From UHGV virus genome UHGV-0099905: 29,459 nt of DNA; one strand, given 5' to 3'. Each line of letters opens with the position of its first letter. The first letter of the stretch is position 1. The notes beneath the pieces were generated by a model. The model saw only the letters and a program-made list of their open reading frames with translations, was not told where the DNA came from and made no database searches. The DNA is from a virus. Below are positions 1,059-25,012 of the stretch, piece after piece. A program made the position numbers and the translations under genes.

Positions 1059-1372
1059 AGCCGCACAAATTTTAGCCATGGCTTTTCAGGAAGTCAGGGC
1101 TATCAGAATGGCCTTAGAAAGCCTAGTCAAAGAGCTGTCACGAGAACACCGTTAGCTTAGCGTACGATTTTTTCCGAATTCTGCGGTTCCCCCTATTCCG
1201 CGTTCTGCAATCACACTCGCTCAGTGTGTCCCATTTTGGTAACGAGGCTGGAAACTGACCTCGCTGGTGTTTGACTTCTTAGGCTACTGCCAGGTATGCA
1301 TCTTCGTTTGCAGTTATATTTAACGTTCAAACAGTCGCATCTCAACGAAAACAAAGTGATCTTATACATATT

Positions 1373-1396
1373 AGATAAGTAAGTAAATACTTATCT
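1373..1396. promoter_or_regulatory. Palindromic motif copy AGATAAGTA-agtaaa-TACTTATCT
   Basis: 9-bp perfect inverted repeat with 6-bp spacer; overlaps the stop codon of the 1391-1696 gene at the end of the ligase operon. Confidence 0.5.
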
Positions 1397-1696
1397 ATCT
1401 GTAATGCGTTTAGTTGCTATTTTTTTGATCAGGCTCCCCTTTTGTTCCGGAGTTCTCGTGATGATGGCGGTAAAACGCTTCGCTTGAATAGTGATAGTTT
1501 CGTTTTCCTTGAGTTCGCCGTAATGCGTCTCTAACAGGGACCCCAGACGCCACAGACCGTCGTCTATGCGTTTATGGCTGGCGAATCTGATCAGCAGTAG
1601 CTTTACGATTAACTGACCAACGTAAAAGGCAAATCCGAAGCCGGCCGCAACAAGGTAGGTTGCCAGCCACCAGTCGAAGGAAGTCAAATTGCTCAT
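1391..1696 (-). CDS. Small membrane protein (101 aa, one N-terminal TM helix), last gene of the ligase operon
   Basis: ORF in track; hydrophobic segment WWLATYLVAAGFGFAFYVGQLIVKLLLI; its ATG overlaps the stop of the upstream 50-aa ORF (ATGA). Confidence 0.5.
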   Translation of the reverse strand: MSNLTSFDWWLATYLVAAGFGFAFYVGQLIVKLLLIRFASHKRIDDGLWRLGSLLETHYGELKENETITIQAKRFTAIITRTPEQKGSLIKKIATKRITDR

Positions 1697-1845
1697 TTTC
1701 GCACTCCCGTCTCGTGAACAACCCGATACACACGCTTACCGACACGAAGTGTTTTGGTTTTCAGTTCCTGCTGGACCAGGGCGCGGCAGATTGCGAGGCC
1801 GAGGCCCACGCCACCAGTAAAAGATAAAATGATGTATGGAATCAT
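1693..1845 (-). CDS. Unlisted 50-aa ORF, predicted single-pass membrane peptide (MIPYIILSFTGGVGLGLAICRALV...)
   Basis: Hand translation of the reverse complement of 1693-1845; ATG overlaps the stop of the upstream gene (TGATG) and its stop overlaps the downstream ATG (ATGA). Below the track size cut-off. Confidence 0.4.
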   Translation of the reverse strand: MIPYIILSFTGGVGLGLAICRALVQQELKTKTLRVGKRVYRVVHETGVRK

Positions 1846-2057
1846 CAGTGCGCCCCCGCCTCAGTCAATTGCTGCAACAACAAATAACCTTTTTCAGTCA
1901 GTTGATAGTTCTCAATACATCCCTTTGGAGAAACGTTGGCGACAAGATTCATGCGCTCCAGTTTGGCTCTGGTCTTCGGCTTCCAGTTGGCGTAGAACTC
2001 CTTCCACTTGCTAATTTCACGCAGGGTTTCCTTCTCTCGTTTACTTAACATGATCAT
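1845..2057 (-). CDS. Small soluble protein (70 aa), possible winged-helix-like DNA binder
   Basis: ORF in track; basic, with the segment YQLTEKGYLLLQQL reminiscent of wHTH wings; start lies inside the 3' end of the upstream 59-aa ORF. Confidence 0.4.
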   Translation of the reverse strand: MIMLSKREKETLREISKWKEFYANWKPKTRAKLERMNLVANVSPKGCIENYQLTEKGYLLLQQLTEAGAH

Positions 2058-2220
2058 CCTTAATCTCCTTCAGTGTGTCCGTGATATCTACTATGCGATA
2101 AATACGACCTCGCCTTTGCATGACACCGGCTTTTACGTAATCGTGGATACAGCTGGACATAACCAGACTTCCGATAACAATGCCGACGACTAAAAATACA
2201 AACATCCAGCCGAGCATCAT
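2041..2220 (-). CDS. Unlisted 59-aa ORF, predicted single-pass membrane peptide (MMLGWMFVFLVVGIVIGSLVM...)
   Basis: Hand translation; ATG overlaps the ligase stop codon (ATGA-type coupling); N-terminal hydrophobic helix. Confidence 0.4.
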   Translation of the reverse strand: MMLGWMFVFLVVGIVIGSLVMSSCIHDYVKAGVMQRRGRIYRIVDITDTLKEIKDDHVK

Positions 2221-3539
2221 TCTTTATCTCCAATACGATCTTCGGTATCTCGAAGACATTTAGGCCACTTCAGACGTGGATGACGCAAGCTACCATCTGG
2301 CGTTTTCTCATGGCAGTGAACCTCAACGATGCGTCCACGATACTTCTCCTGATTGTTCCAGATTTCATCCAGGTATTTATGCTTGATACCGCTGGCACGA
2401 ACGATGACGCCGTTCTCCAGACGAATCACTATCTTGCCTAGCGTATGCGCAAAGCCAGAGTCCGGATCGCCAGGCTCGAAGTCGATGACTTCACCGTCTT
2501 CTGAATCCTCGTCTTTCAGCTTCCACCAGCTGCGGGTACGTTTGAACTCGTAAACTGAATCCGGATCTTTGCCCATCTCTCCCTCTTCATTCTCGTCCAG
2601 TCGCTTCATGAAACGTTCGATGAAATCTTCGTGGCTATGGATGATGTAGAACGGATGAAGGTGGATATCTTGCGCATAATCTTCCACGCAAGTGTTGCGG
2701 AACAACGCCACCAGCATAGCCAGGCGCTCTTTCAGCTTCATACCGGTCTTCAGGTACTCTTTGCTTTTTGCTTGAGCACGCCACTCCGGTAAGAAGAAAT
2801 CGAAAATGTGGTAAACGGCACCAATGGCTTTCACGTTCTTCTTACGAAGCGCCGACACTGACTGGTTGAATGTACCTGCAGTGCCCTCTCCATCGAAGAA
2901 GATGTGATTGAAGCCGGAGAGTCTGCCCCGCTCCAGCATGGCTGGTTTAAGGTGATCGAGTGACGTAATCGGATTGCCGGTGCGCGTCAGGAAATTGACC
3001 TCACCCTCGTCCACGATGACTTCGCAGATAACCCGGAGACCATCGAGTTTGAGACTGCCGATCATTGGCCACTTGGCCTTTGGATTTGGTTTAAATGGGT
3101 ATTTGTCGCCTTTCTCCTTGTACGGAGACGCCAGCTGTACCTCAAACTTCGGAATTGGGTTTTTGAACACCTTGTTGCACAGGCTGATGCCGACACCGGC
3201 TTTCGGATCTTTCAGCAGGAAGCGACGAAACACGTCCTGCCCGTCAGCGCACATCGAGGCAACGAGTGATTCGACAGCAGCAATAGCGATGTTCCCGGTC
3301 AGTTCGCGCGCTGCCAGCTTCTCCAGCAGATCTACTACCTTCTGGTCGCTGGGTACGGAAGTATCGAGTGGCTCGGCCACTTTGTACTTCTTCACACCGA
3401 ATCGAATGAATGGATTGAGCATTAGCGAGACCATGCTCTGTTCAAATTCATCCAGATTGGCCAGCGCCTCTTTCTTGGCGTTGGTTCCCATCGTTTTAAT
3501 AGCATCCAGCTTGTGCTTTAGGGCGATCAGTTTTTCCAT
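2217..3539 (-). CDS. ATP-dependent DNA ligase, phage T7 ligase-like, with N-terminal extension
   Basis: Nucleotidyltransferase motif I KLDGLR, motif V-like RSWWKLK, and C-terminal ETPDGSLRHPR closely resembling the T7 ligase C-terminus (TPDGSLRHP) as recalled. Confidence 0.85.
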   Translation of the reverse strand: MEKLIALKHKLDAIKTMGTNAKKEALANLDEFEQSMVSLMLNPFIRFGVKKYKVAEPLDTSVPSDQKVVDLLEKLAARELTGNIAIAAVESLVASMCADGQDVFRRFLLKDPKAGVGISLCNKVFKNPIPKFEVQLASPYKEKGDKYPFKPNPKAKWPMIGSLKLDGLRVICEVIVDEGEVNFLTRTGNPITSLDHLKPAMLERGRLSGFNHIFFDGEGTAGTFNQSVSALRKKNVKAIGAVYHIFDFFLPEWRAQAKSKEYLKTGMKLKERLAMLVALFRNTCVEDYAQDIHLHPFYIIHSHEDFIERFMKRLDENEEGEMGKDPDSVYEFKRTRSWWKLKDEDSEDGEVIDFEPGDPDSGFAHTLGKIVIRLENGVIVRASGIKHKYLDEIWNNQEKYRGRIVEVHCHEKTPDGSLRHPRLKWPKCLRDTEDRIGDKE

Positions 3540-3573
3540 TAGTGTTTAACCTCCATCGGTCGCTCGGGAGTTT

Positions 3574-4049
3574 TCATGTGTTTTCTTTGGTTGCTTCTTC
3601 AATGAGTGCCGCGTACACGTCAGTGATCGACGCCAGTGAATCGGTGGGCTTGGTTTCGGATTTAGCAGGTTCTGTTTTCTTCGTGCGATGAATAAGACTG
3701 TCAATTGTCGCGGAGTTTCGCTTCCGGGGGGCGTTCTGGCATGGTCGTTTTGCTCTTCCACTTCTTTGATAAGTGAAGACATATCGATGAAGTAGAGCTG
3801 TTCGCCTTTGCGGATCTCTTCGACCATCATTTTCAGTGCCTGACATTTACCAGCAGCAATAGCCGCAGCACAGGACTGGAACGATGTAGCCGGGAGACGT
3901 TTTTCTTTATAGGCGAGGATCGTGTGTTGGCAGACTGTATAGCTGCAATGAGCCTCATGGCCGTTGAGCTTCACTTCCGGGCAGCGCAGCGAATAACCGT
4001 TGTTTCCGGAGATAGACGGGATTTTCGACAAATCTGTTCTTGTGGACAT
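3574..4049 (-). pseudogene. First gene of the ligase operon, split by a frameshift at a G6/C6 homopolymer (3726-3731)
   Basis: Track ORFs 3546-4049 and 3574-3846 are the same strand in different frames; the plausible N-terminal part (frame A) and C-terminal part (frame B, ...KPTDSLASITDVYAALIEEATKENT) join at the C6 run; each frame is low-complexity junk beyond the junction. Confidence 0.5.
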
Positions 4050-4067
4050 GCTTCTAACCGTAATCTT

Positions 4068-4083
4068 GTACTTACTTATTAAT
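4068..4083. promoter_or_regulatory. Motif copy GTACTTACTTATTAAT upstream of the ligase operon
   Basis: Gene-oriented sequence AATAAGTAAGTAC lies 18-40 nt upstream of the ATG at 4049. Confidence 0.45.
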
Positions 4084-4096
4084 CGCAGTTTAAAGA

Positions 4097-4112
4097 AGCC
4101 CCACGAGGGGCT
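4097..4112 (-). terminator. GC hairpin (AGCCCC-acga-GGGGCT) followed by a U-rich tract on the minus strand, after the 4130-4942 gene
   Basis: Inverted repeat seen directly; on the minus strand it is followed by TCTTTAA. Confidence 0.4.
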
Positions 4113-4129
4113 AAATGTTTTATCGAGGC

Positions 4130-4942
4130 TTACCAGGTCGCCCAGCCAGTCATTTTGTCCTGAGCAGCTTCGAACCGGTATGGGTCCAGTAAATCGTTGG
4201 CATGGTGGACGGCGTAGGATTTGGCTTCTTGTTTAATCATGGGTAATTCGTTGGCCAGACGAGCCACTTGCCCTGCAAAACTGGCGAGTACTCCGTCACA
4301 TGCCTGACCCGCGTCGACAATGATGCGCACCAGGTCTAAGTCGCTGCGGCACATATCGCAGATAATGCCGTATTCCACCTCACGAATGCGCTCAACGGCT
4401 TTTTTGATATCGCCACTGACCACCAATTCCAGCAAACCAGGTGGAGTTGTCAGATCTGTTACGCGCTCGGTAACTTCAGACTGTTCGACAATACTCAGGA
4501 ACGCCGCGATGGACGGGTCATCCGCCACACCAGCTCTGACTTTGAGCGTGCGAAGAGTTGCGTCGACAATATCCTCAAACCGTTCACCTTCATCGCACAC
4601 AGTCTGATTGGTGTAGACAGTCTGATTAGTGTAGACAATGCGACCGTCGTACCATGCACCGGTACTCACTTCGACCGTTGCGTCTTTCATCTCGCGAGAG
4701 AACGCCACAAGTGCCGCGCGTTTCTGCTTAACACCTGGCAACTCCGGGGACTCTCCAAAACGAACCCAGACCTGCATGTATTTCGAGCCTTCCGAAAGAG
4801 GTGCGGCGCTCACGGACGTGGCGATATGCTCCAGCGCAGTTTGGATCGCCTCGTCGATAATCTTCTGGCGCTCTTCTGTATCAATTTCTACGCCGGATTT
4901 GTCGATGATGTCGCAGACTAACTTCTGAAATTCTTCTTTCAT
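4130..4942 (-). CDS. Hypothetical acidic protein (270 aa), monocistronic with own motif-bearing promoter and terminator
   Basis: ORF in track; AGGAG SD 6 nt before ATG; no recognisable domain by eye. Confidence 0.6.
   Translation of the reverse strand: MKEEFQKLVCDIIDKSGVEIDTEERQKIIDEAIQTALEHIATSVSAAPLSEGSKYMQVWVRFGESPELPGVKQKRAALVAFSREMKDATVEVSTGAWYDGRIVYTNQTVYTNQTVCDEGERFEDIVDATLRTLKVRAGVADDPSIAAFLSIVEQSEVTERVTDLTTPPGLLELVVSGDIKKAVERIREVEYGIICDMCRSDLDLVRIIVDAGQACDGVLASFAGQVARLANELPMIKQEAKSYAVHHANDLLDPYRFEAAQDKMTGWATW
4601..4636. repeat. 18-bp tandem direct duplication, one mismatch, in-frame
   Basis: agtctgattggtgtagac / agtctgattagtgtagac; encodes duplicated hexapeptide in ...RIVYTNQTVYTNQTV... 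of the 4130-4942 protein. Confidence 0.9.
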
Positions 4943-4982
4943 AGCAACTCCTGACTAACAGATGAAAGTATTCTTTCAGAAA

Positions 4983-5004
4983 AATAAGTAAGTATCTACT
5001 TATT
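4983..5004. promoter_or_regulatory. Palindromic motif copy AATAAGTA-agtatc-TACTTATT
   Basis: 8-bp perfect inverted repeat, 6-bp spacer, 40-60 nt upstream of the ATG at 4942; a TATAAT hexamer abuts it in gene orientation. Confidence 0.55.
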
Positions 5005-5110
5005 ATATCGGGCGCAATAGTCTGCTATACGAAGAAGCCAGGCGTAAAAACCACTCGGATGCACATCCAGCACCCGACAAAGCAGTCGGACAGGCCAGCA
5101 ATGGGTGTTG

Positions 5111-5413
5111 TCACGGATAAAGGCGTACCTCAGTCGGACAGCTTTGCGAAGTACGCCGCGCTTTTTTTAATATGTCCCGTTCGTCGGTAACCCGCTTCAG
5201 CTCTTTCTGGAGACGGCGGATCTCGGCCTGAGCATCTGACTGTTCTTTATTAGTGGAAGAATCCGGACCGTACTTCTTTATCCAGGCATAAAGGCTGTGG
5301 GTGGTGATATCGAGACGTGTTGCAACGCTGGCAACAGAATAACCGCGATCAACAACCTGTTTGACTGCTTCAATTTTAAACTCTTCGGGATAACGCTTAC
5401 CGCTCATGGGCAC
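5111..5413 (-). CDS. IS3-family OrfA (transposase N-terminal HTH protein), probably truncated at the C-terminus
   Basis: Sequence pattern typical of IS3-family OrfA; ORF in track. Confidence 0.75.
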   Translation of the reverse strand: MPMSGKRYPEEFKIEAVKQVVDRGYSVASVATRLDITTHSLYAWIKKYGPDSSTNKEQSDAQAEIRRLQKELKRVTDERDILKKARRTSQSCPTEVRLYP

Positions 5414-5470
5414 CTCTCTTTAAGTCATCTTAAATGACTCTGAGGTGTCTATTAAACCTGTGGCGATTCA
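5111..5470 (-). mobile_element. IS3-family remnant: terminal inverted repeat plus orfA only; orfB deleted
   Basis: orfA-like product with HTH (MSGKRYPEEFKIEAVKQVVDRGYSVASVATRL...) and leucine-zipper-like tail; putative IR end TGAATCGCCACAGG (reverse complement of 5457-5470); no transposase orfB downstream; the C-terminus of orfA diverges after ...ILKKA. Confidence 0.65.
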
Positions 5471-5576
5471 ATACACTAAATCAATAAGTTGGTAGCATTA
5501 CCGATGAATTTGACAATTTAAACTAAAAAAATAAACTACGAAATAATTTTAATGTTATGTTTCCATAAACATGGTA

Positions 5577-6600
5577 GACTAGCCCATGAATCTCCAGACA
5601 GTTGGTTACAGCGCCTGCTGGGCAAAAAAACCATGGAAAACGAGCTGCTGAAAGAAGCCGTTGAATATGGCCGACAAAAAAAGTGGATAGCGCACGTGCC
5701 CTTGTTGCCGGAGGATGGTGAATAAGCCTTGTCAGTCGTTGCCTCCGGGTCTCACGTGCGCAACTGCATGCCATGGCCCGTCGGTCGAAGGGCTGGCAGG
5801 ATCGTCGGTGCAAGCGCAAGCCTGATGATACTGAAGCGCTGGCTCGTATCCATACCGTTATCGACGATCTGCCCACCTATGGTTATCGTCGTGTATGGGT
5901 ACTGCTGCGCAGACAATCAGAAACTGACGACATGGCGGTGATCAATGCCAAACGCGTATACCGCATCATGCGTCAGAATGCGCTGCTGCTTGAGCGTAAA
6001 CCGGCAATACCGCCCTCGAAGCGGGCGCATAGAGGGAAAGTGGCCGTTGGAGAAAGTAACCAGCGGTGGTGCTCCGACGGCTTCGAGTTCAGCTGTGATA
6101 ACGGTGAAAAACTGCGGATCACGTTCGCGCTGGACTGTTGCGATCGCGAGGCACTTCACTGGGCAGCAAGTACCGGTGGATATGACAGTGAAACCGTGCA
6201 GGACGTCATGCTGGGTGCAGTAGAGCGTCGCTTCGGTAACAGGCTGCCGACATCCCCCGTTGAGTGGCTGACAGACAACGGTTCAGCCTACCGTTCTCAT
6301 CAGACGCGTCAGTTCGCCAGAATGGTAGGACTGGAGCCAAAACATACGGCGGTACGTAGTCCAGAAAGCAACGGAATGGCGGAGAGCTTCGTGAAAACGA
6401 TGAAGCGCGACTACATCAGTATCATGCCAAAACCTGACGGGTTAACAGCGGCAAAGAACCTTGCGGAGGCCTTCGAACATTACAACGAATGGCATCCGCA
6501 CAGTGCACTGGGATATCGTTCTCCACGGGAATATCTGCGGCGGCGAACCAGTAATGGGTTAAGCGATAAAAAGTGTCTGGAAATATAGGGGCCAATCCAC
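5577..6600 (+). mobile_element. IS2-like element with internal deletion removing most of orfA (about 1.0 kb versus about 1.3 kb for intact IS2)
   Basis: Left end TAGACTAGCCCATGAATCTCCAGACA matches the IS2 left inverted repeat as recalled; it is joined directly to the last roughly 35 codons of InsC ([38 protein letters not shown]), followed by complete orfB; right end near GGGGCCAATCCA. Confidence 0.75.
5773..6588 (+). CDS. IS2 InsD-like transposase catalytic subunit (orfB)
   Basis: Very close match to IS2 InsD as recalled ([10 protein letters not shown]..., DNGS.YRS, rve integrase-core motifs). Confidence 0.85.
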
Positions 6601-6729
6601 ATGGAAATGTTTTTGATTAAAATAAAAAATATTCTTTTATATTGCCCTATCATTTTTATTTTTAGTAATTTATTAGCAAGAGATTGCGATCTCTTTTTTA
6701 GTTAAAGCAAATTAGTTAAGGATTAGTCT

Positions 6730-7278
6730 ATGAAACGTTCAGTTATTGCGGCTACTGTATTAGCATCTCTTTTTATGAGCGCAGGATCATTTGCAGCAGA
6801 AGGGAGTACAGAGGGTCAGTTAACTATTAACGGTAAAGTCACAGAGACTACATGTCAGTTCCTGAGCGGTAGTGAGAATACAACAATTTCGATGAGCGAA
6901 ATTGGTCGTGATCAATTTGAAAATGTAGAAGTTGGCTCCCCCGTTACTACTTATTCAAATACAACATCTTTACCACTAAAAGTTAAGTGTACCGGAGGAA
7001 AAGAACCAAGAATTACCTTCTCCAGCACCCAATTTGAAGGAACGGATTCAAATATTATTCGCAATACTGGTGATGCTAGCGGTGTCGGTTTCGCTGTTTT
7101 TTTGGGGAAAGGTACTGATTCTAGCAACCGGATTTCTGGTAATAGACCTATTAAGTTAACACCAACTACTAATGGTGAACATGAGTTACATTTTACGGCA
7201 CAATACGCAAAAACAGCTGTTGATGTGGGTACTGGCGAAGTTAGTTCTGCGATAACAATGACCGTTGTAACAGATTAA
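6730..7278 (+). CDS. Fimbrial major subunit (chaperone-usher pathway)
   Basis: Signal peptide MKRSVIAATVLASLFMSAGSFA, about 180 aa, first in operon before chaperone and usher; AGGA SD upstream. Confidence 0.7.
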   Translation: MKRSVIAATVLASLFMSAGSFAAEGSTEGQLTINGKVTETTCQFLSGSENTTISMSEIGRDQFENVEVGSPVTTYSNTTSLPLKVKCTGGKEPRITFSSTQFEGTDSNIIRNTGDASGVGFAVFLGKGTDSSNRISGNRPIKLTPTTNGEHELHFTAQYAKTAVDVGTGEVSSAITMTVVTD

Positions 7279-7333
7279 CATGATGTTTATCGGCGGCTTC
7301 GGTCGCCGATTTTCAATCGCAAGGATTGTTATC

Positions 7334-8014
7334 ATGAAAAAATTAATAGCCTTCTTACTAACCGTAACGGTCCCATCTGCGTGGGGCGGTGTCTATATTT
7401 ACGGCACTCGCGTTATTTATCCGGAACAGAAAAAAGAGATTGCAGTTCAGTTAATGAATGAAGGTGAGCGTAGTGCTCTTGTTCAGTCGTGGATTGATGA
7501 TGGCGATGCCAGCCTTCCTCCGGAAAAGATTAGTGTACCTTTTGTGCTGACTCCACCGGTAGTTCATGTTAGTAAGGGTGAAGGACAGCAACTGAAAATT
7601 AAACAACTGGCGAACACTCTACCTAAAGATCGCGAAAGTCTGTTCTTCCTTAATGTACTGGATATTCCACCTAATAGTGAGAAATACGAAGGCAAGAATC
7701 TGATTAAATTCGCGATGCAAAATCGTATCAAATTTATTTATCGCCCAAAGGGTATAACAAGAGTCGATAAAGAGAGTTTTTCCCGGATTAATATCAGACC
7801 CGTTGATAGAGGCATTAACATAAAAAATAATTCAGCGAACTGGATAACCATTCCTGAATTAACCGGGAATGCGAAAATTAATAAGGAGACACTACTGCTG
7901 GCACCCTGGTCAGATCAGACTGTCAAAACGACATCCGTTGTTAACTATTACAATGTTACTCTGATTGATGATCATGGAAACTATTTGAGTGAAAAAATAA
8001 AAACTGCCAAATAG
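7334..8014 (+). CDS. Periplasmic fimbrial chaperone (PapD-like)
   Basis: Classic chaperone N-terminal pattern GVYIYGTRVIYPE...; start moved to ATG at 7334 (MKKLIAFLL signal peptide) behind AAGGA, rather than the track start at 7280. Confidence 0.85.
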   Translation: MKKLIAFLLTVTVPSAWGGVYIYGTRVIYPEQKKEIAVQLMNEGERSALVQSWIDDGDASLPPEKISVPFVLTPPVVHVSKGEGQQLKIKQLANTLPKDRESLFFLNVLDIPPNSEKYEGKNLIKFAMQNRIKFIYRPKGITRVDKESFSRINIRPVDRGINIKNNSANWITIPELTGNAKINKETLLLAPWSDQTVKTTSVVNYYNVTLIDDHGNYLSEKIKTAK

Positions 8015-8031
8015 ATTATCAGGGATTGGTT

Positions 8032-10518
8032 ATGTCAAAGTTTAATTCTATTACACTGGCTATTCTGTCAGTATTAGCGACTTCGCATACATGGGCTAAG
8101 GGTGAAACGTTTAATACCAATTTTATGATTGGTGGTTTAAATGGGGAGAAAATTTCTAACTACCATATTGATAGTGATAAGCCGATGCCGGGTATCTACG
8201 CTATGGATGTTTATCTGAATAATCAATGGCGTGGCCACTATGATATTGATATTAAAGATGACCCTAATGCAACATGTTTATCCATGGAGCAATTAAAGCA
8301 AATTGGGATCCTCACTGAAGGAATTAGTATCGATAAAGGCGTAGAATGTGTACCACTTCGGGATGCTGTCCAGGGAGGCAGCGTCGACTATGATATTGGG
8401 CATTTTAACCTAAAATTAAGCGTGCCCCAAGCCTATGTTCTGGAATATGAACATGGCTATGTTCCGCCTGAAGCATGGGATCGCGGGATTAACGCATTAT
8501 ATACATCTTATTATGCCAGTCAGTATTACAGTGATTATAAAAACGGCGGAGATGATAAAAGTAGCTATCTAAATCTGAACAGTGGGTTAAATCTCCTGGG
8601 CTGGCAGCTGCATTCAAATGCCAATTATACGAAAAGCGACGAAAACAGCGGTAAATGGAAGAGTAACACGCTATATCTGGAACGTGGAATTCCACAAATT
8701 CTCGGCACGTTTCGCGCAGGTGAAATGTATACTGGTTCTGATGTTTTTGACTCCGTGCGTTTTCGCGGCGTGCGCCTTTGGCGCGATATGCAGATGTTAC
8801 CGAACTCTAAACAGAATTTTACTCCTGTGGTACGCGGCGTTGCCCAGAGTAACGCACTCGTCACCATAGAACAAAATGGTTTTGTGGTTTACCAGAAAGA
8901 AGTACCGCCAGGCCCATTCGCCATTGATGATTTGCAACTTTCTAATGGTGGGGCAGATTTGGAAGTTATCGTCAAAGAAGCTGATGGTTCAACGTCGTAC
9001 TATCGGGTGCCTTATTCATCGGTGCCAAATATGTTGCAACCTGGCGTTTCTAAATATGAATTTTCAGCCGGACGTAGTCATATTGAAGGAGCCAGCAATC
9101 AATCTGATTTTATCCAGGGAAGCTATAAGCATGGTTTCAACAATTTGCTGACAGGTTATGGCGGCACGCTGTTATCTGATAATTACTCATCGTTTGTTCT
9201 TGGAACAGGATGGAATACACCGATTGGTGCTATATCGGTTGATTTTACCCATTCATACAGCAAGCAAGACAACGGTGATGTGTTTAACGGTCAAAGTTAT
9301 CAGATTGCCTGGAATAAATATCTCTCTCAGAGCGGAACACAATTTTCTCTGGCGGCCTGGCGTTATTCCTCTCGGGGTTATCGTACTTTTAACGATCATG
9401 TATGGGCAAATAACAAAAATAGATACAATCGAGAAGACAACTCAGGCTATGACATTGCCAACTACTACCAGTATGATTTTGGTCGCAAGAATAGCTTTTC
9501 TTTAAATATCAACCAGTCATTACCGGAAAATTGGGGGTATCTGGCGATCAGCGGTCAATGGCGAGATTACTGGGAACGTAGCGGGACAGGGAAAAATTAC
9601 CAACTAAGCTATACGAACTCATGGGAACGTCTAAGTTATACCTTGTCGGTTAGCCAGACATACGATGAGGATAACAGCGAAGACAGACGCATTAACTTAT
9701 TTTTCTCAATCCCCTTCTCGTGGCGTGATAATATCACCGAAAAACGACGAGATTTATTTATCTCTAACTCGACCACATTTGATAAAGACGGCTACCAGTC
9801 AAATACTACCAGCCTCAGTGGTGTAGCTGGGAACCGTGATCAGTTCAGCTACGGGGCTAACTTTAGCCATCAACAACAGGACAGCGAAGCAACAGCAGGT
9901 GGAAATCTGATTTGGCGTGCGCCAGTGGCTACCATTGGTGGCAGCTATAGCCAGTCGAAAAAATATCAACAGATAAGTGGTAATATTCAAGGTGGTTTAG
10001 TCGCGTGGTCAGACGGGATAGCACTGGCTCCCAGACTTTCAGATACATTTACCATCGTCCATGCTCCGGGGCTGGATGGGGCTGCGGTACAGGGGTATCG
10101 TTACCTGAGCACGGATAGCCGAGGTTACGCTATTTATGACAGCCTGACGCCGTATCGTAAAAACACGTTGATGCTGGATACTTCTGACAGTCAAAGCGAT
10201 GTGGCACTACTGGGCAACCGTAAAAGCACCGCTCCTTATCGTGGGGCCGTTGTGATGACGCAGTTTGATACTGACAAACGTAAACCCTGGTATTTCCTTG
10301 CTCAGCGCCCGGATGGTTCTCCATTATCGTTCGGTTATGAAGTTGAAGATGAAAGCGGTAAGAATGTGGGCTTGGTAGGACAGGGAAGTCGGATATTTAT
10401 TCGCACTGATGATGTTCCCGCATCGATTCGCGTCTCGGTTAATAAACAGCAGGAACAATTCTGTACTATTACCTTTGATAAAGTTATCGAAGAGAATAAA
10501 GTTTATATTTGTCGTTAA
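8032..10518 (+). CDS. Fimbrial outer-membrane usher
   Basis: About 830 aa, signal peptide, usher N-terminal FNTNF motif, beta-barrel-type composition; ATG at 8032 behind AGGGA. Confidence 0.9.
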   Translation: MSKFNSITLAILSVLATSHTWAKGETFNTNFMIGGLNGEKISNYHIDSDKPMPGIYAMDVYLNNQWRGHYDIDIKDDPNATCLSMEQLKQIGILTEGISIDKGVECVPLRDAVQGGSVDYDIGHFNLKLSVPQAYVLEYEHGYVPPEAWDRGINALYTSYYASQYYSDYKNGGDDKSSYLNLNSGLNLLGWQLHSNANYTKSDENSGKWKSNTLYLERGIPQILGTFRAGEMYTGSDVFDSVRFRGVRLWRDMQMLPNSKQNFTPVVRGVAQSNALVTIEQNGFVVYQKEVPPGPFAIDDLQLSNGGADLEVIVKEADGSTSYYRVPYSSVPNMLQPGVSKYEFSAGRSHIEGASNQSDFIQGSYKHGFNNLLTGYGGTLLSDNYSSFVLGTGWNTPIGAISVDFTHSYSKQDNGDVFNGQSYQIAWNKYLSQSGTQFSLAAWRYSSRGYRTFNDHVWANNKNRYNREDNSGYDIANYYQYDFGRKNSFSLNINQSLPENWGYLAISGQWRDYWERSGTGKNYQLSYTNSWERLSYTLSVSQTYDEDNSEDRRINLFFSIPFSWRDNITEKRRDLFISNSTTFDKDGYQSNTTSLSGVAGNRDQFSYGANFSHQQQDSEATAGGNLIWRAPVATIGGSYSQSKKYQQISGNIQGGLVAWSDGIALAPRLSDTFTIVHAPGLDGAAVQGYRYLSTDSRGYAIYDSLTPYRKNTLMLDTSDSQSDVALLGNRKSTAPYRGAVVMTQFDTDKRKPWYFLAQRPDGSPLSFGYEVEDESGKNVGLVGQGSRIFIRTDDVPASIRVSVNKQQEQFCTITFDKVIEENKVYICR

Positions 10519-10528
10519 AGGATTTTTT

Positions 10529-11539
10529 ATGAAGAAATATTGGTTTTTGTTTTTGTTGATTATTCCATTTTTTGGGCAGGCGAAATGTACCCCTAAGGGA
10601 ACTTGGACAGCAACTCAACCAATTACACTGGACTTAACAACGGATTCAACAATAGTAAGTTTTAATCCCAACCTGCAAGGATCTTATGAATGTAACTCGA
10701 GGGGGGATAAGATGTATTTTGCAACAACGTTAGATGACTATATTGTTGAAATGAAAGATGGCTCCAGCAATAAGTCTATTTTTATTAAATTAAAGCTTGA
10801 GGCTGATGGATTTCCTGTAGAAACGAGTGGTTCGCTTCTGTCGCCTAAAACCTATTCTGTTGCTGATACCATTAATAATAAACAACTGAAGTTAACGGCC
10901 TCATATATACCACCAACTAAATATAGAAGTGATCGTGGTGAAGCGGTAGAGGGGGATTCATTCGAATTGAAAAAAGCGGCGGCTAATTTTTTGTCTGATA
11001 ATACATGTAGTTCAAATATTCTTTCATGGATAGCATGCTATGTTTTTGGATTGTTAAATAAAGGTGAAGCTTACGAACAAAAACTAACCATTAATGTTAA
11101 ACACAAACCCACAACCTGTCGTTTCTCGCAACCGACTTACGAAATAAGAATACCAGAAACAACGATAAGTGAAATGCTATCTGCCAATAACTCAAAATCA
11201 GGTTCTGTAGATCTGGTCCTAAATTGCGATAGTGTCTATAACGTCACGACTAATCCAGTGACTTTTAAAGTTGAGCGTGGTGTGTGGGATGATAGTGGAA
11301 CAATATTGAAAAATACATTGTCCGATGGTGCTAAGGGTGTAGGGTTCCAGATTTACAATGGTAATGCAACGACACCGTTAAAGCTGGGCGATACCCTGAT
11401 GAACAGATTACCTAAAATGGCGGCTATTCAGGAGCAGTACATCTTCCCGATTACCGCAAAATACGTTCGCGTGAAAGAGGAAGCTTTACAGCCTGGGGAA
11501 GTTCAAGGCCAGGCGATATTTGCCGTATCCTACGACTAA
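10529..11539 (+). CDS. Fimbrial minor subunit / tip adhesin candidate (two-domain size, about 337 aa)
   Basis: Signal peptide MKKYWFLFLLIIPFFGQA starting at ATG 10529 after SD AAAGGA; the track start at 10409 overlaps the usher and is rejected. Confidence 0.6.
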   Translation: MKKYWFLFLLIIPFFGQAKCTPKGTWTATQPITLDLTTDSTIVSFNPNLQGSYECNSRGDKMYFATTLDDYIVEMKDGSSNKSIFIKLKLEADGFPVETSGSLLSPKTYSVADTINNKQLKLTASYIPPTKYRSDRGEAVEGDSFELKKAAANFLSDNTCSSNILSWIACYVFGLLNKGEAYEQKLTINVKHKPTTCRFSQPTYEIRIPETTISEMLSANNSKSGSVDLVLNCDSVYNVTTNPVTFKVERGVWDDSGTILKNTLSDGAKGVGFQIYNGNATTPLKLGDTLMNRLPKMAAIQEQYIFPITAKYVRVKEEALQPGEVQGQAIFAVSYD

Positions 11540-11566
11540 TGAGCATGGTGGTTAGTCGCTACTTTT

Positions 11567-11600
11567 CACGTACTTTCGGAGAGAAAGTACGTGTGTTTTT
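11567..11600 (+). terminator. Rho-independent terminator after the fimbrial operon
   Basis: 11-bp perfect stem CACGTACTTTC / GAAAGTACGTG, 5-nt loop, followed by TGTTTTT. Confidence 0.6.
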
Positions 11601-11717
11601 ATCCAGAGCGCCCTAAAACCCCGTCCTTCAGAGTGGAGGTATAAGGCGCACTGGATAAAATGATGGAGTAGTGGGCAATTAAGCTCTATAATTGCGTACA
11701 CATATTGAGTACACGAG

Positions 11718-11945
11718 GTGTTTATGCAATCTATTAACTTCCGTACCGCACGCAGCAATCTTACCGAAGTGCTCAACAATGTTGAAGCCGGAGAAGAGGT
11801 TGAAATCACCCGTAGAGGCCGTGAGCCAGCTGTAATTGTCAGCAAGGCCACTTTCGAAGCCTACAAAAAAGCGGCGCTGGATGCTGAATTCGCATCCCTG
11901 TTTGACACTCTGGACACCACCAATAAGAAACTGGTTAACCGATAA
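11718..11945 (+). CDS. phd: Phd antitoxin (P1-type)
   Basis: [64 protein letters not shown]... is near-identical to P1 Phd as recalled; overlaps doc by TAATG. Confidence 0.9.
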
Positions 11946-12322
11946 TGAGGCATATATCACCGGAAGAGCTTACTGCAATTCATGATGCGAATATAAGCCG
12001 CTACGGCGGCCTGCCAGGCATGTCAGATTCGGGAAGAGCTGAGGCTATTATCGGGAGAGTCCAGGCCAGAGTTGCATATGAAGAGATTACCGACCTTTTC
12101 GAAGTCTCCGCAACTTACCTGGTGGCTACTGCGAGAGGGCATATATTCAATGATGCCAATAAGCGTACCGCGCTAAACAGTGCGTTGTTATTTCTGCGCC
12201 GTAACGGTGTGCAGGTATATGATTCACCAGAACTGGCAGAGCTTACTGTGGGGGCTGCGACCGGAGAGGTATCCGTATCTACTGTCGTTGCCACGTTACG
12301 TAGATTGTATGGTACGGCGTAG
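11945..12322 (+). CDS. doc: Doc toxin (Fic-fold kinase, P1-type)
   Basis: MRHISPEEL...[26 protein letters not shown]... matches P1 Doc as recalled, including the Fic-like HxFxDANKR motif. Confidence 0.9.
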
Positions 12323-12455
12323 TAAATTAATGGTACGCAAATACAACAAATTGTCCCGTGACGCGTTAAAGATGCTTCTTGATGGGGTGAGCAGCCGCAA
12401 GGTTATGAATCGCCACGGATAATTTAGACACTTCCGAGCCGTTGATAATACTGGT

Positions 12456-13640
12456 TCAAACTAATGCAGCTATGCCTTTTACCTTGCTTAAAAGTTCAAG
12501 CTGTCGTGAATAAGGTTTTGCGCAATAGTAGGCTTTGATAATCTGCCCCGGTGTCGCATCGCCGGGATCGAGTCCTTCCTCGCCCAAACACGCTACTTTG
12601 ACATTAAGACCGATACTGGTCAGTCGCCTGGCTGCGGCCATCGTGTTGCGTATAGCTTGCTTTTCACTATCCCACATCATAATCACATTACGTAATCCAC
12701 GCGCCTTGAGCGTCAGGAACGCGCCCAACTGATCTTCTGCATCCTGAGTGGTGTTACCAGATAGATGCATCCCGAACGTTCCTATCGGTTCCACGTAATC
12801 GCGTAATGTTTCTTCATCAAAAATAGCTCGTTTAACCCCCATAACATCGAACGCCCCCTCACAGACAACTACAGTCTGTTTGCCGACTGCATTGTGGCCG
12901 TTGTAGAGAAATTTACCCGATGCTGGCAGCTGCATGGGGAACAGATACCGGCGTTCTGCTGCACCGGTAATGTCACGACCCTGGAAGGTCTTCATCACGC
13001 CATCCAGATCGTAAACCGGTATCAGTATTCGCATATCGAATACCTGTCCTTTGACCTGGTCTGTGTACGGATCGACGTATGCGTGCTTGCCTTCGACGCA
13101 GTAACGCAGATCAAAGTATTTGGCCAGCTCCGGGGAAATCTGGCGCTCCACCAGATAATCAGGAAGACGACCGTCAATGGGGAGTTCGTAATGGCGCGGG
13201 AGAGCTACCGGTCCTTCCAGTTCAACCTTGCTGGCCAGCACGATCTCTTCCTTCTTCGGCGCCCAACCTTGTGAGATCAGCGCGTTCTGGACGTACTCTT
13301 CAAAATCGCGACGGGATTTGCCGCTGTAATGCTTTAGGAAGACCAGCTTATTGAACTGAATCTCTTCGGGATGATCACCTGCAAAGCATTTGCCGACACC
13401 ACTGGTCAGGTTGAAATAAACCTTCCAGTTTGAGCTGCCGCATACCGGACACTCTTTAATGTTGACCTCTCGTCCGCGAGTACTGACTCCACCATGACGG
13501 TAGATGATCCCTTCCATATCGAGCCATTGCTCAAAATCCAGCTCGGTCAGTAATTCTTTCAAGTCGCTCACGTTCTTACCCCTGTTTTTTGCAGGTAATA
13601 TCTTGATAAGCCTCGGTATTTGAATACCATAAAGGCTCAT
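12456..13640 (-). CDS. DNA primase (zinc-ribbon N-terminus plus TOPRIM-like core)
   Basis: CPVCGSS...C...H zinc-binding pattern and acidic TOPRIM-like segment VVVCEGAFD; start placed at ATG 13640 (MSLYGIQ) rather than the upstream TTG of the track. Confidence 0.6.
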   Translation of the reverse strand: MSLYGIQIPRLIKILPAKNRGKNVSDLKELLTELDFEQWLDMEGIIYRHGGVSTRGREVNIKECPVCGSSNWKVYFNLTSGVGKCFAGDHPEEIQFNKLVFLKHYSGKSRRDFEEYVQNALISQGWAPKKEEIVLASKVELEGPVALPRHYELPIDGRLPDYLVERQISPELAKYFDLRYCVEGKHAYVDPYTDQVKGQVFDMRILIPVYDLDGVMKTFQGRDITGAAERRYLFPMQLPASGKFLYNGHNAVGKQTVVVCEGAFDVMGVKRAIFDEETLRDYVEPIGTFGMHLSGNTTQDAEDQLGAFLTLKARGLRNVIMMWDSEKQAIRNTMAAARRLTSIGLNVKVACLGEEGLDPGDATPGQIIKAYYCAKPYSRQLELLSKVKGIAALV

Positions 13641-13694
13641 GTGTTTTTTCTTTTGTGGTTTTGGCAAAAGAGAAATTTGTTCTCTTCTGGAGAC

Positions 13695-13729
13695 AGGCGT
13701 GGAGAGTGTTTCCCCACGCCTTCTTTTTT
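13695..13729 (+). terminator. Plus-strand-oriented hairpin plus T-run, between minus-strand helicase and primase genes
   Basis: AGGCGTGG / CCACGCCT 8-bp stem followed by TTCTTTTTT on the plus strand; on the minus strand an A-run precedes the hairpin. Confidence 0.4.
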
Positions 13730-15068
13730 AGAGGACGTCCATAATGCGTTCGATGAATCGCATTTGTTCGAGGTTCTGCTTAACGCGGATGCTTACGCCG
13801 CCTTTCTGGTTACGTGAACCAGCGAAGTAAAGACGCGCTTCGCCTTTCGCTTCTTCTTCTTCCGTTTTGTTGATAGTGATAACGAGGTCAGCGATACGCA
13901 CCTTCTCGATGTTGTCCGCTGCGTGCATCATTGTAGCCACCTCAGAAGCGCCACCTTCTCTGTTAGTCTGCGATGCCGTGATGCCGGCAACGTTGTGTTT
14001 GTCGTACAGCGCACGCAGGTCAGTGTAGATGCTGCGAATGTTAGCGCGGTCGTCGCGGAGGTCGTAGCTGGCACGCATCAGGTCAGCGTAGTCGACCACA
14101 ACCATATCGGGGACCATACCGTTGGCTTTCATGCTGCCCAACATACGGTCCAGATCTGCGGGCGACATGCTTCCGGACGGTCGTTCAACAATCCACAAAC
14201 TTCCCACGCCTTTCGTCGCACCCAGCTCCGCCAGTTTGCGATGGACGTCATCGCGACGTTCCACCAGCCTGGACATTTCGGTCTCAGACAGACGGGCGTC
14301 AAAGCGATCTGACAGAATGGAGGTGTGAACTTCCAGCGACAGATACAGGACGTTGTAACCGGCAAGCGTGGCGTTGATGGAAAACTCCCCCATCGCCGTC
14401 GATTTACCAGACTTAGCGAAGCCCATAAACAGCACCATTTCACGCTTTGCCCAGCCTTTCTGGTAAAGCAGTTTGTCGAGCAGCGGGAGGCCGGTAGTGA
14501 TGCTGTTTGGCACGTAATCGTCGGACGCTTCGTACTCACGGGCCTTGTAACGCTCCGCTGATTCTGCGAAGTAATCGTAAATGCCGGTCGCTTCGTTAGA
14601 GCCAATTTGCTGGACCTTAGCCATGATTGCCATCGCGCCCTGGAAATCGCCCTTCTCTTTCATCTCAGCCGCTTTAATTAGCGCATCGTCGAACGCTACG
14701 CTTTTAGCAAATGTCGCGACCTGGTCGACCATGTACGCCGTATCTGACAGCTTCTCAGCGAGAATGCGCTTAAACGCCTCAACAACGTCAGGGAACAGCT
14801 CTTCGCGGATCGTCTTATCGCGTTTGGCGCGTTTGAGCATGTCGAGGATGGCTGATGATGATGGTGCGCTCTTATACATTCTGTAGTAGCCCGACACCAT
14901 GTTAACCAGAATGGAGTTAGCCGCATTAGAGAACTGGTTTGGGGCAACCAGATCGCCTGCGCGAGTCAGAAACTCATGGTCGCGACAGAAGTAGGCAGCG
15001 AGTCTATTCTGGAAGTCGTCGTCGAACTCTTCAGACAACCCTCGTCCTGTGTGGCAAAGTTCGGTCAT
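13728..15068 (-). CDS. Replicative DNA helicase, DnaB family
   Basis: Walker A GFAKSGKST, RecA-like C-terminal domain with DnaB-type motifs; 446 aa; diverged from host DnaB. Confidence 0.8.
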   Translation of the reverse strand: MTELCHTGRGLSEEFDDDFQNRLAAYFCRDHEFLTRAGDLVAPNQFSNAANSILVNMVSGYYRMYKSAPSSSAILDMLKRAKRDKTIREELFPDVVEAFKRILAEKLSDTAYMVDQVATFAKSVAFDDALIKAAEMKEKGDFQGAMAIMAKVQQIGSNEATGIYDYFAESAERYKAREYEASDDYVPNSITTGLPLLDKLLYQKGWAKREMVLFMGFAKSGKSTAMGEFSINATLAGYNVLYLSLEVHTSILSDRFDARLSETEMSRLVERRDDVHRKLAELGATKGVGSLWIVERPSGSMSPADLDRMLGSMKANGMVPDMVVVDYADLMRASYDLRDDRANIRSIYTDLRALYDKHNVAGITASQTNREGGASEVATMMHAADNIEKVRIADLVITINKTEEEEAKGEARLYFAGSRNQKGGVSIRVKQNLEQMRFIERIMDVL

Positions 15069-15128
15069 GTGCTTTCCTTTGGTGCTTAAACAATTTGTTT
15101 TCTAATACTAAAAAAGCCAGATAGGGGA

Positions 15129-15854
15129 TCAACAGAATCGCCGTGCTTCTTCCAGTTCTTCCGGGAAGTGCGCGTAAATCACACGCTCAGGCACGATTTC
15201 CATCAACCAGACAGCGGAGAAGATGATACGGATGCGTTTATCTCGGGTAATGCCACGCAGACGCTCCAGAATCCACTCAAAATAGCGTTCCTGAATCGGG
15301 TCACGCTGCATGTCTCCAAGATGCTTAAAACTCACCAGAGAGTCATCCAGACGGGTTACAGCGCGTTTGGCTAACTTCTCTTCGAATATCTCGATCAACT
15401 CGGGCTGCCAGAGATGCTGGGGGCGCGGTAATTTGTCCCACAGCCGTCGTGCAGCTGCGGAAAGAACGGTGGAGATAAAGTAGTCGTATGAGCAGCAATA
15501 GCGGTCAGCAAACTGGCGTGCTTTCCAGAGCGACGTTTTGTTGACCGTCGACAACTCCTGATATGGCACACGCTTCAGACCGGTTGTGAATGGAGCCGTC
15601 TCATAGTGTTCACGACCATGCGACAGCATGATGTATGAGTACTGGCGCTTGTATGCCTCAGTGAAAAGGCATGTGGCCATAAGTGGGTGCATGTCGCGGT
15701 AATCAAACCACTTCGTCTCGAAGAGTTCAGCCTCGTCTTTACAGCGCGACAAACCAATGTTTTCAGCGACCCACTTGTCCATAACAGCGGTATTCCACTC
15801 TGTCATGAAATCGTACTGGTCATTGTCGATAGTGTTGAAGAAGATCTGGCTCAC
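15129..15854 (-). CDS. Hypothetical protein (241 aa), first gene of the helicase-primase operon
   Basis: ORF in track; GTG start at 15854 behind AAGGGA; motif copy immediately upstream. Confidence 0.55.
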   Translation of the reverse strand: MSQIFFNTIDNDQYDFMTEWNTAVMDKWVAENIGLSRCKDEAELFETKWFDYRDMHPLMATCLFTEAYKRQYSYIMLSHGREHYETAPFTTGLKRVPYQELSTVNKTSLWKARQFADRYCCSYDYFISTVLSAAARRLWDKLPRPQHLWQPELIEIFEEKLAKRAVTRLDDSLVSFKHLGDMQRDPIQERYFEWILERLRGITRDKRIRIIFSAVWLMEIVPERVIYAHFPEELEEARRFC

Positions 15855-15866
15855 ATGATTCCCTTT

Positions 15867-15890
15867 AATAGGTATGTACTTACTTATCTA
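15867..15890. promoter_or_regulatory. Motif copy AATAGGTATGTACTTACTTATCTA
   Basis: Near-identical to the copy at 24921-24944 (21 of 22 aligned positions); directly upstream of the replication operon. Confidence 0.55.
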
Positions 15891-15991
15891 AGTGAGCGAA
15901 TCATAGCGACTGGAGATATTTTTGGGAAGTGGAAACGGAAGGGAGTTGTTCTGGTGGGTGTCTTTTAAAAGACCTGCTTCCGTATATATTT

Positions 15992-16006
15992 AATAAGTTA
16001 CTTATT
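15992..16006. promoter_or_regulatory. Palindrome AATAAGT-T-ACTTATT in the AT-rich region upstream of the GIY-YIG gene
   Basis: 7-bp perfect inverted repeat with 1-bp spacer, same half-site as the other motif copies. Confidence 0.45.
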
Positions 16007-16136
16007 ATTTATATACAGAAACAGGCATAACTTGTCGTCTTAGACACCCAGAAGCTCTACACTTTGAGCCTGTAAAATTGATTAAAAACTTATGTGTAAA
16101 ATAGAACGCATTAGTCAGTAGCTAAGAGATGCAATA

Positions 16137-18303: not shown

Positions 18304-18573
18304 ATGTCCGCACTGAAAAAGCAGCGCATCGATTTGAGATTAACCGATGACGATAAAAGCATCATCGAGGAAGCTGCCGCAATGTCTAACCAGAGCATTA
18401 CCCAGTTCATGGTTAGCAGTGCATCCGAACGTGCCGTGAAGGTGATAGAGCAACACCGTAGACTGGTTCTAAGTGAAGAGTCCTGGAATCTGGTTATGGA
18501 TGCTATAAGCAATCCTCCGGCACCGAACGACAAGCTGAAACGAGCTGCCAATCGTCTGAAAAGCATGGAGTAA
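18304..18573 (+). CDS. tacA: DUF1778-type RHH antitoxin (TacA-like)
   Basis: 89 aa; RIDLRLTDDDKSIIEEAAA...QFMV...AISNPPAPNDKLKRA pattern typical of the family; followed 8 nt later by a GNAT gene. Confidence 0.8.
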   Translation: MSALKKQRIDLRLTDDDKSIIEEAAAMSNQSITQFMVSSASERAVKVIEQHRRLVLSEESWNLVMDAISNPPAPNDKLKRAANRLKSME

Positions 18574-18580
18574 TTTACTC

Positions 18581-20620: not shown

Positions 20621-20632
20621 GTAAGTACTTAC
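20621..20632. promoter_or_regulatory. Perfect 12-bp palindrome GTAAGTACTTAC (motif copy) upstream of the lysis-like cassette
   Basis: Overlaps the stop codon of the Gly-rich gene; followed at about 25 nt by TGGTATAAAT. Confidence 0.5.
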
Positions 20633-21423: not shown

Positions 21424-21485
21424 AATAACCCTCTCAAATATTATGACAGTTTATTATGGGAGAGGTCTTAGCCTCTCCAACATTA

Positions 21486-24875: not shown

Positions 24876-24895
24876 GTTCTTTTTCACTCCTTGAA

Positions 24896-24919
24896 GTGTG
24901 GGCGTCCCCCCGCCCACAC
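24896..24919. other. GC-rich hairpin (9-bp stem GTGTGGGCG / CGCCCACAC, 6-nt loop) in the 5' leader of the tail-fibre gene
   Basis: Seen directly between the motif copy and the RBS. Confidence 0.5.
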
Positions 24920-24920
24920 A

Positions 24921-24944: not shown

Positions 24945-25012
24945 CCATGATACAAAATCCTTTTGCACTAAGAAAACACGCTATATACATTGCTGCTCAT
25001 TATTCCTATCAA

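Follow-up and report, generated by a model that had tools for sequence, protein, structure and literature searches.

A third Yeh/Yhl-type chaperone-usher pilus operon as probable cargo of an SSU5-like phage-plasmid

The tip adhesins YehD and YhlD of Escherichia coli carry a receptor-binding head built from a beta jelly-roll core with an alpha-helical flap between its last two strands. The corresponding Yeh and Yhl pili belong to the gamma-4 class and are encoded by minimal four-gene operons; the two heads share their fold at only 14% identity, the ligand of YehD is pectin, and YhlD binds colon mucosa (PMC12778044). Fimbrial operons that move on plasmids and islands are textbook knowledge (PMC3559732). 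A further operon of this kind lies in the 29,459-nucleotide (nt) DNA of the UHGV virus genome UHGV-0099905, the whole of which is called the window here. Its four genes very probably form an intact, self-contained gamma-4 operon of the Yeh/Yhl/Stc group that sits as a cargo block in a gene-swap site of a phage-plasmid backbone related to Salmonella phage SSU5.

The caf1 operon, which encodes the F1 capsule, is a chaperone-usher system located on plasmid pMT1 of Yersinia pestis. It represents a different chaperone-usher type: its product is a capsule-like polymer that lacks a tip adhesin, and a dedicated regulator, caf1R, comes with it. Like the operon described here it is accessory cargo of an SSU5-related phage-plasmid, but the host genus and the cargo site differ. 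The SSU5 supergroup, of which pMT1 is a member, contains PapC and PapD in its shell genome (PMC7969092). Accessory DNA bounded by insertion sequences (IS) is also known from the variable regions of phage-plasmids whose backbones are otherwise conserved, with blaCTX-M-15 on SSU5-like elements of the pECOH89 type and cnf3 and enterotoxins on P1-like elements as examples (PMC8085198; 10.1101/2025.09.12.675607). In contrast to such resistance and toxin cargo, an adhesin system is joined here to a toxin-antitoxin stub.

An earlier note on this DNA, made from its letters alone, had placed a four-gene fimbrial operon in the window. Pfam bears this out on four co-directional open reading frames (ORFs) in the order major pilin, chaperone, usher and adhesin, which is the minimal Yeh/Yhl-type layout (Table 1). 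The gene starts at 7334, 8032 and 10529 are those given by the NCBI annotation pipeline PGAP in an identical plasmid record, and the longer ORFs begin at 7280, 8026 and 10409; the adhesin ORF of 376 amino acids (aa) proposed at first was over-extended, since the PGAP start gives 336 aa. All four proteins have putative Sec signal peptides. PGAP names the pilin 'YehD', which is YehA/YhlA in the Hultgren nomenclature. In the chaperone the anchoring residues are visible in the translation as Arg8 (mature N-terminus GVYIYGTR) and the lysine motif NRIKFIYRP, in agreement with the Arg8/Lys112 criterion. The usher is complete, with N-terminal domain, barrel/plug and C-terminal domain, and covers 549 of the 549 positions of the Usher profile. 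The adhesin consists of a receptor-binding domain (residues ~19-190) and a pilin domain (~195-336). At the gene level all hallmarks of a classical chaperone-usher system are present: a chaperone, a full usher, an immunoglobulin-like pilin with a signal peptide and a two-domain adhesin.

Typing by homology, a check that had been suggested with the original description, identifies the pilin, chaperone and usher as Yeh-type and leaves the adhesin with a predicted shared fold only. In NCBIfam the pilin scores 192.7 bits with the YehD equivalog (cut-off 136), the chaperone 387.9 bits with PRK15218 (cut-off 372) and the usher 1455.7 bits with PRK15217 (cut-off 933); the adhesin stays below threshold, scoring 25-27 bits where 395 and 452 are required. 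The usher is 62% identical to that of K-12 Yeh and 56% identical to that of Sakai Yhl (ECs_0019-0024), which are 58% identical to each other. The corresponding figures are 55%, 50% and 56% for the chaperone and 35%, 33% and 27% for the major pilin. With its K-12 counterpart the adhesin aligns at 26% identity in the C-terminal pilin domain only; it has no BLASTP hit to the Yhl adhesin, and neither have the Yeh and Yhl adhesins to each other. A search of the PDB with the adhesin sequence returned nothing at an expectation value (E) of 1 or below, and only a fold search on the predicted model was informative, pointing to a head of the Yeh/Yhl type and to a pilin domain like that of FimH. Because Yeh, Yhl and this operon are roughly equidistant, the operon is classed as a third lineage of the Yeh/Yhl family, about as distant from both members as they are from each other; the Yeh-type assignment of the usher comes from its profile score and pairwise identities, not from a tree.

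The closest known system is the gamma-4 Yeh pilus of E. coli (K-12 yehDCBA; YehA-D in the UTI89 nomenclature). In contrast to Yeh, the adhesin head of the present operon has no sequence similarity to the Yeh head, and pectin binding cannot be assumed for it. The operon also resides on mobile elements, whereas yeh occupies the chromosomal rcnB-yehE locus, and it is found in 2% of complete E. coli genomes as compared with roughly half to more than 90% for yeh (PMC12778044, PMC3559732). Yhl ('Yeh-like', of phylogroup E E. coli) likewise differs in having a fixed chromosomal locus adjoining nhaR. Three more specific identities were considered and rejected. An orthologue of K-12 yehDCBA is contradicted by the adhesin scores below cut-off, the alignment of the pilin domain alone and a locus other than rcnB-yehE; an orthologue of Sakai ECs_0019-0024 by 56% usher identity, the adhesin without a BLASTP hit and the different locus; and plasmid type pSE11-2 (ECSE_P2-0002) of Wurpel et al. 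2013 by its different gene order (chaperone, usher, small subunits). Among species-representative genomes, chromosomal four-gene orthologues with 77-90% usher identity occur in Salmonella enterica subsp. diarizonae, Escherichia whittamii, Escherichia sp. E1V33 and several Citrobacter. The third lineage is evidently native to the chromosomes of Citrobacter, S. enterica subsp. diarizonae and cryptic Escherichia species.

Base composition is of little help in deciding how the operon came to its present place. The operon had been noticed for its lower G+C content (GC), and the difference exists: at 41.7% GC the module (6709-11602) lies below the backbone on its left (49.3%) and on its right (48.2%). 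GC at third codon positions ranges from 26 to 41% among the operon genes and from 42 to 64% among those of the backbone, and the lowest-GC 4.9-kb stretch of the whole sequence begins at 6551. As a sign of foreignness, the low GC did not survive comparison with related operons. The core chromosomal yeh operon of K-12 has 42.5% GC with flanks of 51-53% and an upstream region of 24%, Sakai yhl has 39.4%, and native orthologues in Citrobacter and Salmonella have 43-45% with flanks of 52-55%. Low GC as proof of foreign origin was rejected on these controls; it is a trait of the pilus family and no sign of recent import. Presence or absence of the operon in related backbones is therefore the decisive evidence for its cargo status.

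The backbone is clearly related to SSU5. The left arm contains an ATP-dependent DNA ligase gene (2217-3539) and homologues of SSU5_043 and SSU5_042. On the right, 12481-16025 is 91% identical to SSU5, and from 12481 on the identity is 87-91% as far as ~22.3 kb. By these alignments the flanks are SSU5-like phage-plasmid DNA. Positions 55-25000 are ~100% identical to E. coli plasmid pLAO59 (NZ_OP242238), and the window (1-29459) corresponds to ~79518-108976 of that plasmid. The repA-parAB region of pLAO59 is 97.5% identical to P7/P1 and typed IncY, unlike an SSU5/pHCM2-type replicon; its siblings pYLPI6a and pLAO18 are typed IncFIB. The plasmid combines ~30 kb of SSU5-like DNA with ~65 kb that encode resistance and metal tolerance, and is evidently a defective chimera of a P7/P1 replicon and SSU5-like phage DNA. 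It was published as a Y-type phage-plasmid that lost its phage body genes, with the fimbriae unmentioned (PMC10272864).

If that description were extended to the window, the element would be a P1-type (IncY) phage-plasmid and the operon would have come with P1 DNA. The replicon, the phd/doc genes (91% identical to P1) and the occurrence of an 85% identical allele of the operon in a genuine P1-like plasmid all favour this origin. It is improbable nonetheless, as only 0.7 kb of the window is P1-like, whereas 3.8 kb on the left and ~10 kb on the right of the cargo are 87-91% identical to SSU5 and the rest has its counterpart in more closely related SSU5-like plasmids. The P1-borne allele is, moreover, only ~85% identical and sits at a different, IS1-linked site. 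The 106-kb plasmid pGS04EC-1 has the identical block with identical junctions, and its head, tail and replication genes bear no P1 names. It encodes terminase, portal, major capsid, tape-measure, tail-tip and tail-fibre proteins, and its size falls within the 103-120 kb range of isolated SSU5-like phages; it is apparently an intact carrier. Transfer of the operon in virions is plausible for siblings of this kind. The earlier note saw in adhesin cargo a way in which colonisation factors might be mobilised, an idea that is likewise plausible.

Between the two arms SSU5 itself has only SSU5_041. The same interval holds a 1558-aa RecQ-like helicase and DprA in pLAO18, the arms of which are 97-98.5% identical, and an IS5, a sulfatase and an anaerobic sulfatase maturase in pYLPI6a, with arms 98-99.6% identical. 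The interval from the SSU5_042 homologue to the primase, which runs from 5006/5470 to 12406/12481 in the window, is evidently a hotspot for the swapping of cargo. In PLSDB, 703 plasmids (237 from Escherichia) share the adjacent primase/helicase region, and only 23 of them carry the operon allele of at least 98% identity; in precisely these 23 the operon is contiguous with the backbone on either side. Of 5426 complete E. coli genomes, 111 contain the operon, in 79 chromosomal and 40 plasmid places. On this sparse carriage, together with the other cargo at the same site, the operon is to be regarded as accessory cargo in a swap-prone site and not as ancestral, as the earlier note had proposed for a phage-plasmid-type backbone. 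That note had named uniform composition and conservation of the operon in all relatives as signs of an ancestral component; the composition is uneven, and most relatives are free of the operon, with other genes in its place in SSU5, pLAO18 and pYLPI6a.

It can hardly be true, then, that the operon is ancestral in the SSU5-like backbone and was lost from some relatives. The shared position and junctions in all 23 plasmids with the allele of at least 98% identity, and the listing of PapC and PapD families among the shell genes of the SSU5 supergroup (PMC7969092), would suit such a history. The carriage of 23 in 703 speaks against it, as do the absence of the operon from 50,697 phage records (SSU5 included), the unrelated genes at this site in backbones 97-99% identical, and the block itself, which is IS-bounded, contains P1-derived DNA and is also found in a chromosome.

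IS remnants had been noted beside the operon and are indeed present. The ISEhe3-like fragment includes orfA (5111-5413) and has lost its outer part, and its terminal inverted repeat ends ...GGCGATTCA at 5470. The second IS3-family element adjoins the operon leader with its right end and is annotated by PGAP in pGS04EC-1 as 'IS3 family transposase, missing N-terminus'. At the far side of the block, a 51-nt remnant of the other ISEhe3 end adjoins the stop codon of the primase gene and is also found in pLAO18 and pGS04EC-1. The two ISEhe3 pieces are arms 1 and 2 of a 38-nt inverted repeat (I1), and they represent permuted ends, as expected for two direct copies around the cargo. The intact terminal inverted repeats that face the cargo at 5470 and 12406 in direct-copy order might suggest a present or former composite transposon, with the flanking ISEhe3 copies as the agents that mobilised the block. 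This mode of transfer has a low probability, as the copies are cut to 437 and 51 nt with no transposase and no target-site duplication, and the chromosomal copy of the block has no ISEhe3 flanks. Identical stumps also bracket the RecQ/DprA cargo in pLAO18 and hence predate, or are independent of, the pilus cargo; therefore they mark the hotspot and are not the vehicle of the operon. ISEhe3 end remnants occur at the borders in pYLPI6a too, in another orientation.

Table 1. Coordinates of the features in and around the pilus block (positions in the window)
Feature	Position	Strand	Details
Left SSU5-like arm	1191-5006	-	91% identical to SSU5 38175-41976; gene order as SSU5_042-048
ISEhe3-like IS3-family fragment	5034-5470	-	93% identical to ISEhe3 of phage SfIV; NCBIfam transpos_IS3
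Unassigned stretch	5471-5608		138 nt
Second IS3-family element, 5'-truncated	5609-6601	+	orfB 5773-6588; Pfam rve/rve_3/HTH_21
AT-rich leader, presumed promoter and Shine-Dalgarno	6602-6729	+	128 nt, 21.9% GC
Major pilin	6730-7278	+	182 aa; Pfam Fimbrial, E 1e-9
Periplasmic PapD-type chaperone	7334-8014	+	226 aa; Pfam PapD_N, E 4.5e-40
Outer-membrane usher	8032-10518	+	828 aa; PapC_N E 1e-33, Usher E 1e-183, PapC_C E 9e-10
Two-domain tip adhesin	10529-11539	+	336 aa; Pfam Fimbrial in C-terminal half only, E 3e-13
Intrinsic terminator closing the operon	11567-11602	+	11-bp GC-containing stem (11567-11593), then TGTTTTTAT
Imperfect inverted repeat I2	11597-11660		26 nt, 81% complementary, 12-nt spacer; at joint of pilus module and P1 fragment
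P1-derived addiction stub	11687-12405	+	91.2% identical to P1 88009-88725
ISEhe3 other-end remnant	12406-12456	-	51 nt (TGAATCGCCAC...); 92% identical to opposite ISEhe3 end in SfIV
Right SSU5-like arm	12456-15068	-	DNA primase 12456-13640, DnaB-like helicase 13728-15068

Downstream of the operon lies a piece of P1 that extends from the -10 box of the phd promoter to a point 95 nt into pdcA. It comprises this -10 box, phd (11724-11945; Pfam PhdYeFM), doc (11945-12322; Fic/DOC) and the 5' part of pdcA; the PdcA fragment is annotated in pGS04EC-1. The phd/doc pair (11724-12322) had been taken for a landmark of the backbone. It is present where it was described, but it is a P1-derived part of the imported block: SSU5 and the operon-free siblings pLAO18 and pYLPI6a have no phd/doc at this site. 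In the chromosome of YZ22MPE54 an island adjoining an integrase gene and hsdR contains an IS3-family element, the four pilus genes, phd, doc and the pdcA stub, and positions 6602-12405 of the window are ~99% identical to it. By its distribution, phd/doc evidently belongs to the imported cargo and not to the backbone. The P1 piece of the island has the same left end and runs 28 bp further into pdcA; the upstream IS is full-length there, yet only ~80% identical to that of the window. The longer P1 piece and the full-length IS of the island mark the plasmid copy as a shortened derivative of a block in which operon and addiction stub had already been put together. The inverted repeat I2 is present in the chromosomal copy and absent downstream of the 85% allele.

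Plasmid and chromosomal copies differ by 24 substitutions in 400 nt of the adhesin head (10809-11208) and by 21 in 600 nt of the pilin and leader (6609-7208), with 0-2 per 200 nt in the usher gene. The clustering looks like diversifying selection or recombination acting on exposed parts.

A second allele is ~85% identical over 6709-11602. Its proteins are 89% (usher), 84% (chaperone), 69% (pilin) and 62% (adhesin) identical to those of the window, and at the DNA level its adhesin head is unalignable. Its four known settings are the P1-like pMB7206_1, where it adjoins IS1 and the flank is 98% identical to P1; an IncF conjugative plasmid, where it lies between IS66 and IS1; a further SSU5-like plasmid, where repA is its neighbour; and a chromosome, where it adjoins an integrase gene. 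In all four the same tRNA-like remnant lies ~120 nt downstream of the adhesin gene; PGAP annotates it as a 127-nt tRNA-Ser and ARAGORN finds no tRNA in it. E. whittamii and Escherichia sp. E1V33 have a tRNA-Ser(GGA) ~670 bp downstream of the orthologous operon, which hints that the 85% allele may have been captured from a chromosome like theirs.

The module common to both alleles stops at 11602, the end of a terminator that the 85% allele has kept as well. This terminator had been called strong, and it is, with a folding free energy (dG) of -16 kcal/mol, a z-score of -4.06 and none of 200 shuffled sequences equally stable. At the other end, only the last ~22 nt of the leader (from 6709) are shared by the window and the 85% allele. 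A hairpin noted upstream of the operon (6680-6705) exists at 6681-6696, followed by a T-run, but it is not above chance (dG -6.7, z-score -0.96, 34 of 200 shuffles folding equally well) and is missing from the 85% allele; as a regulatory element it was rejected on both counts. Searched at gathering thresholds, Rfam gave no match in the entire window and no known RNA element near the operon. The operon contains no regulator gene. A promoter-like site at 6596-6623 (TCCACA-16-TAAAAT) straddles the junction of the IS3-family element and the operon leader: its -35 element still belongs to the right end of the IS, its -10 element to the leader. A hybrid promoter created by the IS is possible and may serve as a lead, in a scan that is overall at chance.

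From the established chaperone-usher pathway, the working of the system may be outlined as follows. After Sec export the chaperone would cap the subunits by donor-strand complementation; the usher would accept the two-domain adhesin first and then polymerise the major pilin beneath it by donor-strand exchange. The product would be a thin, flexible gamma-4-type fibre with a receptor-binding tip of the Yeh/Yhl fold. The 22%-GC leader and the lack of a regulator gene may point to silencing of the H-NS type, as for the cryptic yeh operon of K-12. The operon did not come by itself but belongs to the block 6602-12405, where it is fused to the P1-derived phd-doc-pdcA' stub and has the IS3-family element in front; the block lies between the SSU5_042 homologue and the primase gene, bracketed by the two ISEhe3 remnants. 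In intact siblings a cell would gain the pilus genes through lysogeny by the phage-plasmid, a case of lysogenic conversion, and phd/doc would help to keep them. We infer that phd/doc may stabilise the carrier and that the pilus may have a role in gut colonisation.

Several results weigh against this account. The promoter scan returned promoter-like hits at the level of shuffled expectation and identified no promoter. At the position of the flap the predicted adhesin has a single short helix (residues 164-172) of low confidence, with a predicted local distance difference test (pLDDT) value of ~57-61. The annotation of pLAO59 is without terminase, portal and capsid; a tail fibre and a receptor-recognising protein are all that is left. 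The search of phage records gave 0 hits in 50,697, and no isolated phage genome is among the carriers. No target-site duplication surrounds the block (ATA vs TTA). Relatives, finally, are cryptic in the laboratory, and K-12 yeh has been described as such (PMC3559732).

This last point leads to the view that the operon is an intact-looking but silent passenger that hitch-hikes with phd/doc and IS and confers no adhesion phenotype, which is somewhat unlikely. The upstream region of 22% GC resembles those of H-NS-silenced cryptic operons, no regulator gene is present, and the operon and phd/doc lie together in plasmids and chromosome alike. On the other hand, the four reading frames have stayed intact in the 23 plasmids and in dozens of chromosomes. 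The usher is at most 0.1% divergent between plasmid and chromosome, with the changes gathering in the adhesin head and the major pilin, and between alleles the surface proteins diverge most (62-69% vs 84-89%), as one would expect of expressed and selected surface antigens. An intact pilus operon as swap-site cargo remains the preferred reading.

Three other features of the window lie outside the pilus block. At its left edge (1-1193) the end of an IS26 (1-54) cuts a gene for a PAS-domain methyl-accepting chemotaxis protein (aer-like), of which the 3' part remains (ORF 51-1004). The fragment is 100% identical in the P1-like records MH445380 and SJ46, which suggests an IS26-associated module common to P1-like and SSU5-like elements. 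A second toxin-antitoxin pair at 18304-19102 combines a DUF1778/TacA-type antitoxin with a GNAT acetyltransferase toxin and is conserved in SSU5-like siblings. A second variable region (~20632-24968) consists of tail-fibre and receptor-recognition genes on the minus strand (20629-21423 and 21486-24968); alignments with close siblings break there, and the annotated lengths of the tail fibres vary among plasmids.

Literature searches on SSU5/pHCM2-like elements returned nothing specific to this operon, and none of the papers searched ties pMT1 and pHCM2 to caf1. The literature searched contains no description of its identity as a third lineage, of its joining to an addiction stub from P1, of the swap site mapped here or of the second allele on P1-like elements. 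Mobile fimbrial operons are known already, as are genes for pilus assembly in the SSU5 supergroup, and the current understanding is unchanged. Phage-plasmids have been studied mainly as carriers of resistance, and here the cargo is a well-defined adhesin system; its swap site is mapped, an addiction module is linked to it, and P1-like elements carry a second allele. The adhesin head, with its predicted Yeh/Yhl fold and no sequence similarity to either head, offers a third specimen for how this fold diversifies its ligands. If carriers like pGS04EC-1 are inducible, pilus genes could spread by infection to strains out of reach of conjugative plasmids. More tentatively, the third Yeh/Yhl lineage might be spreading in human and livestock E. 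coli by lysogenic conversion, with two unrelated families, the SSU5-like and the P1-like elements, acquiring different alleles independently, a scenario that we consider doubtful at present. If it were true, infection by a virion, not conjugation, would hand a cell both a gut-adhesion organelle and an addiction module.

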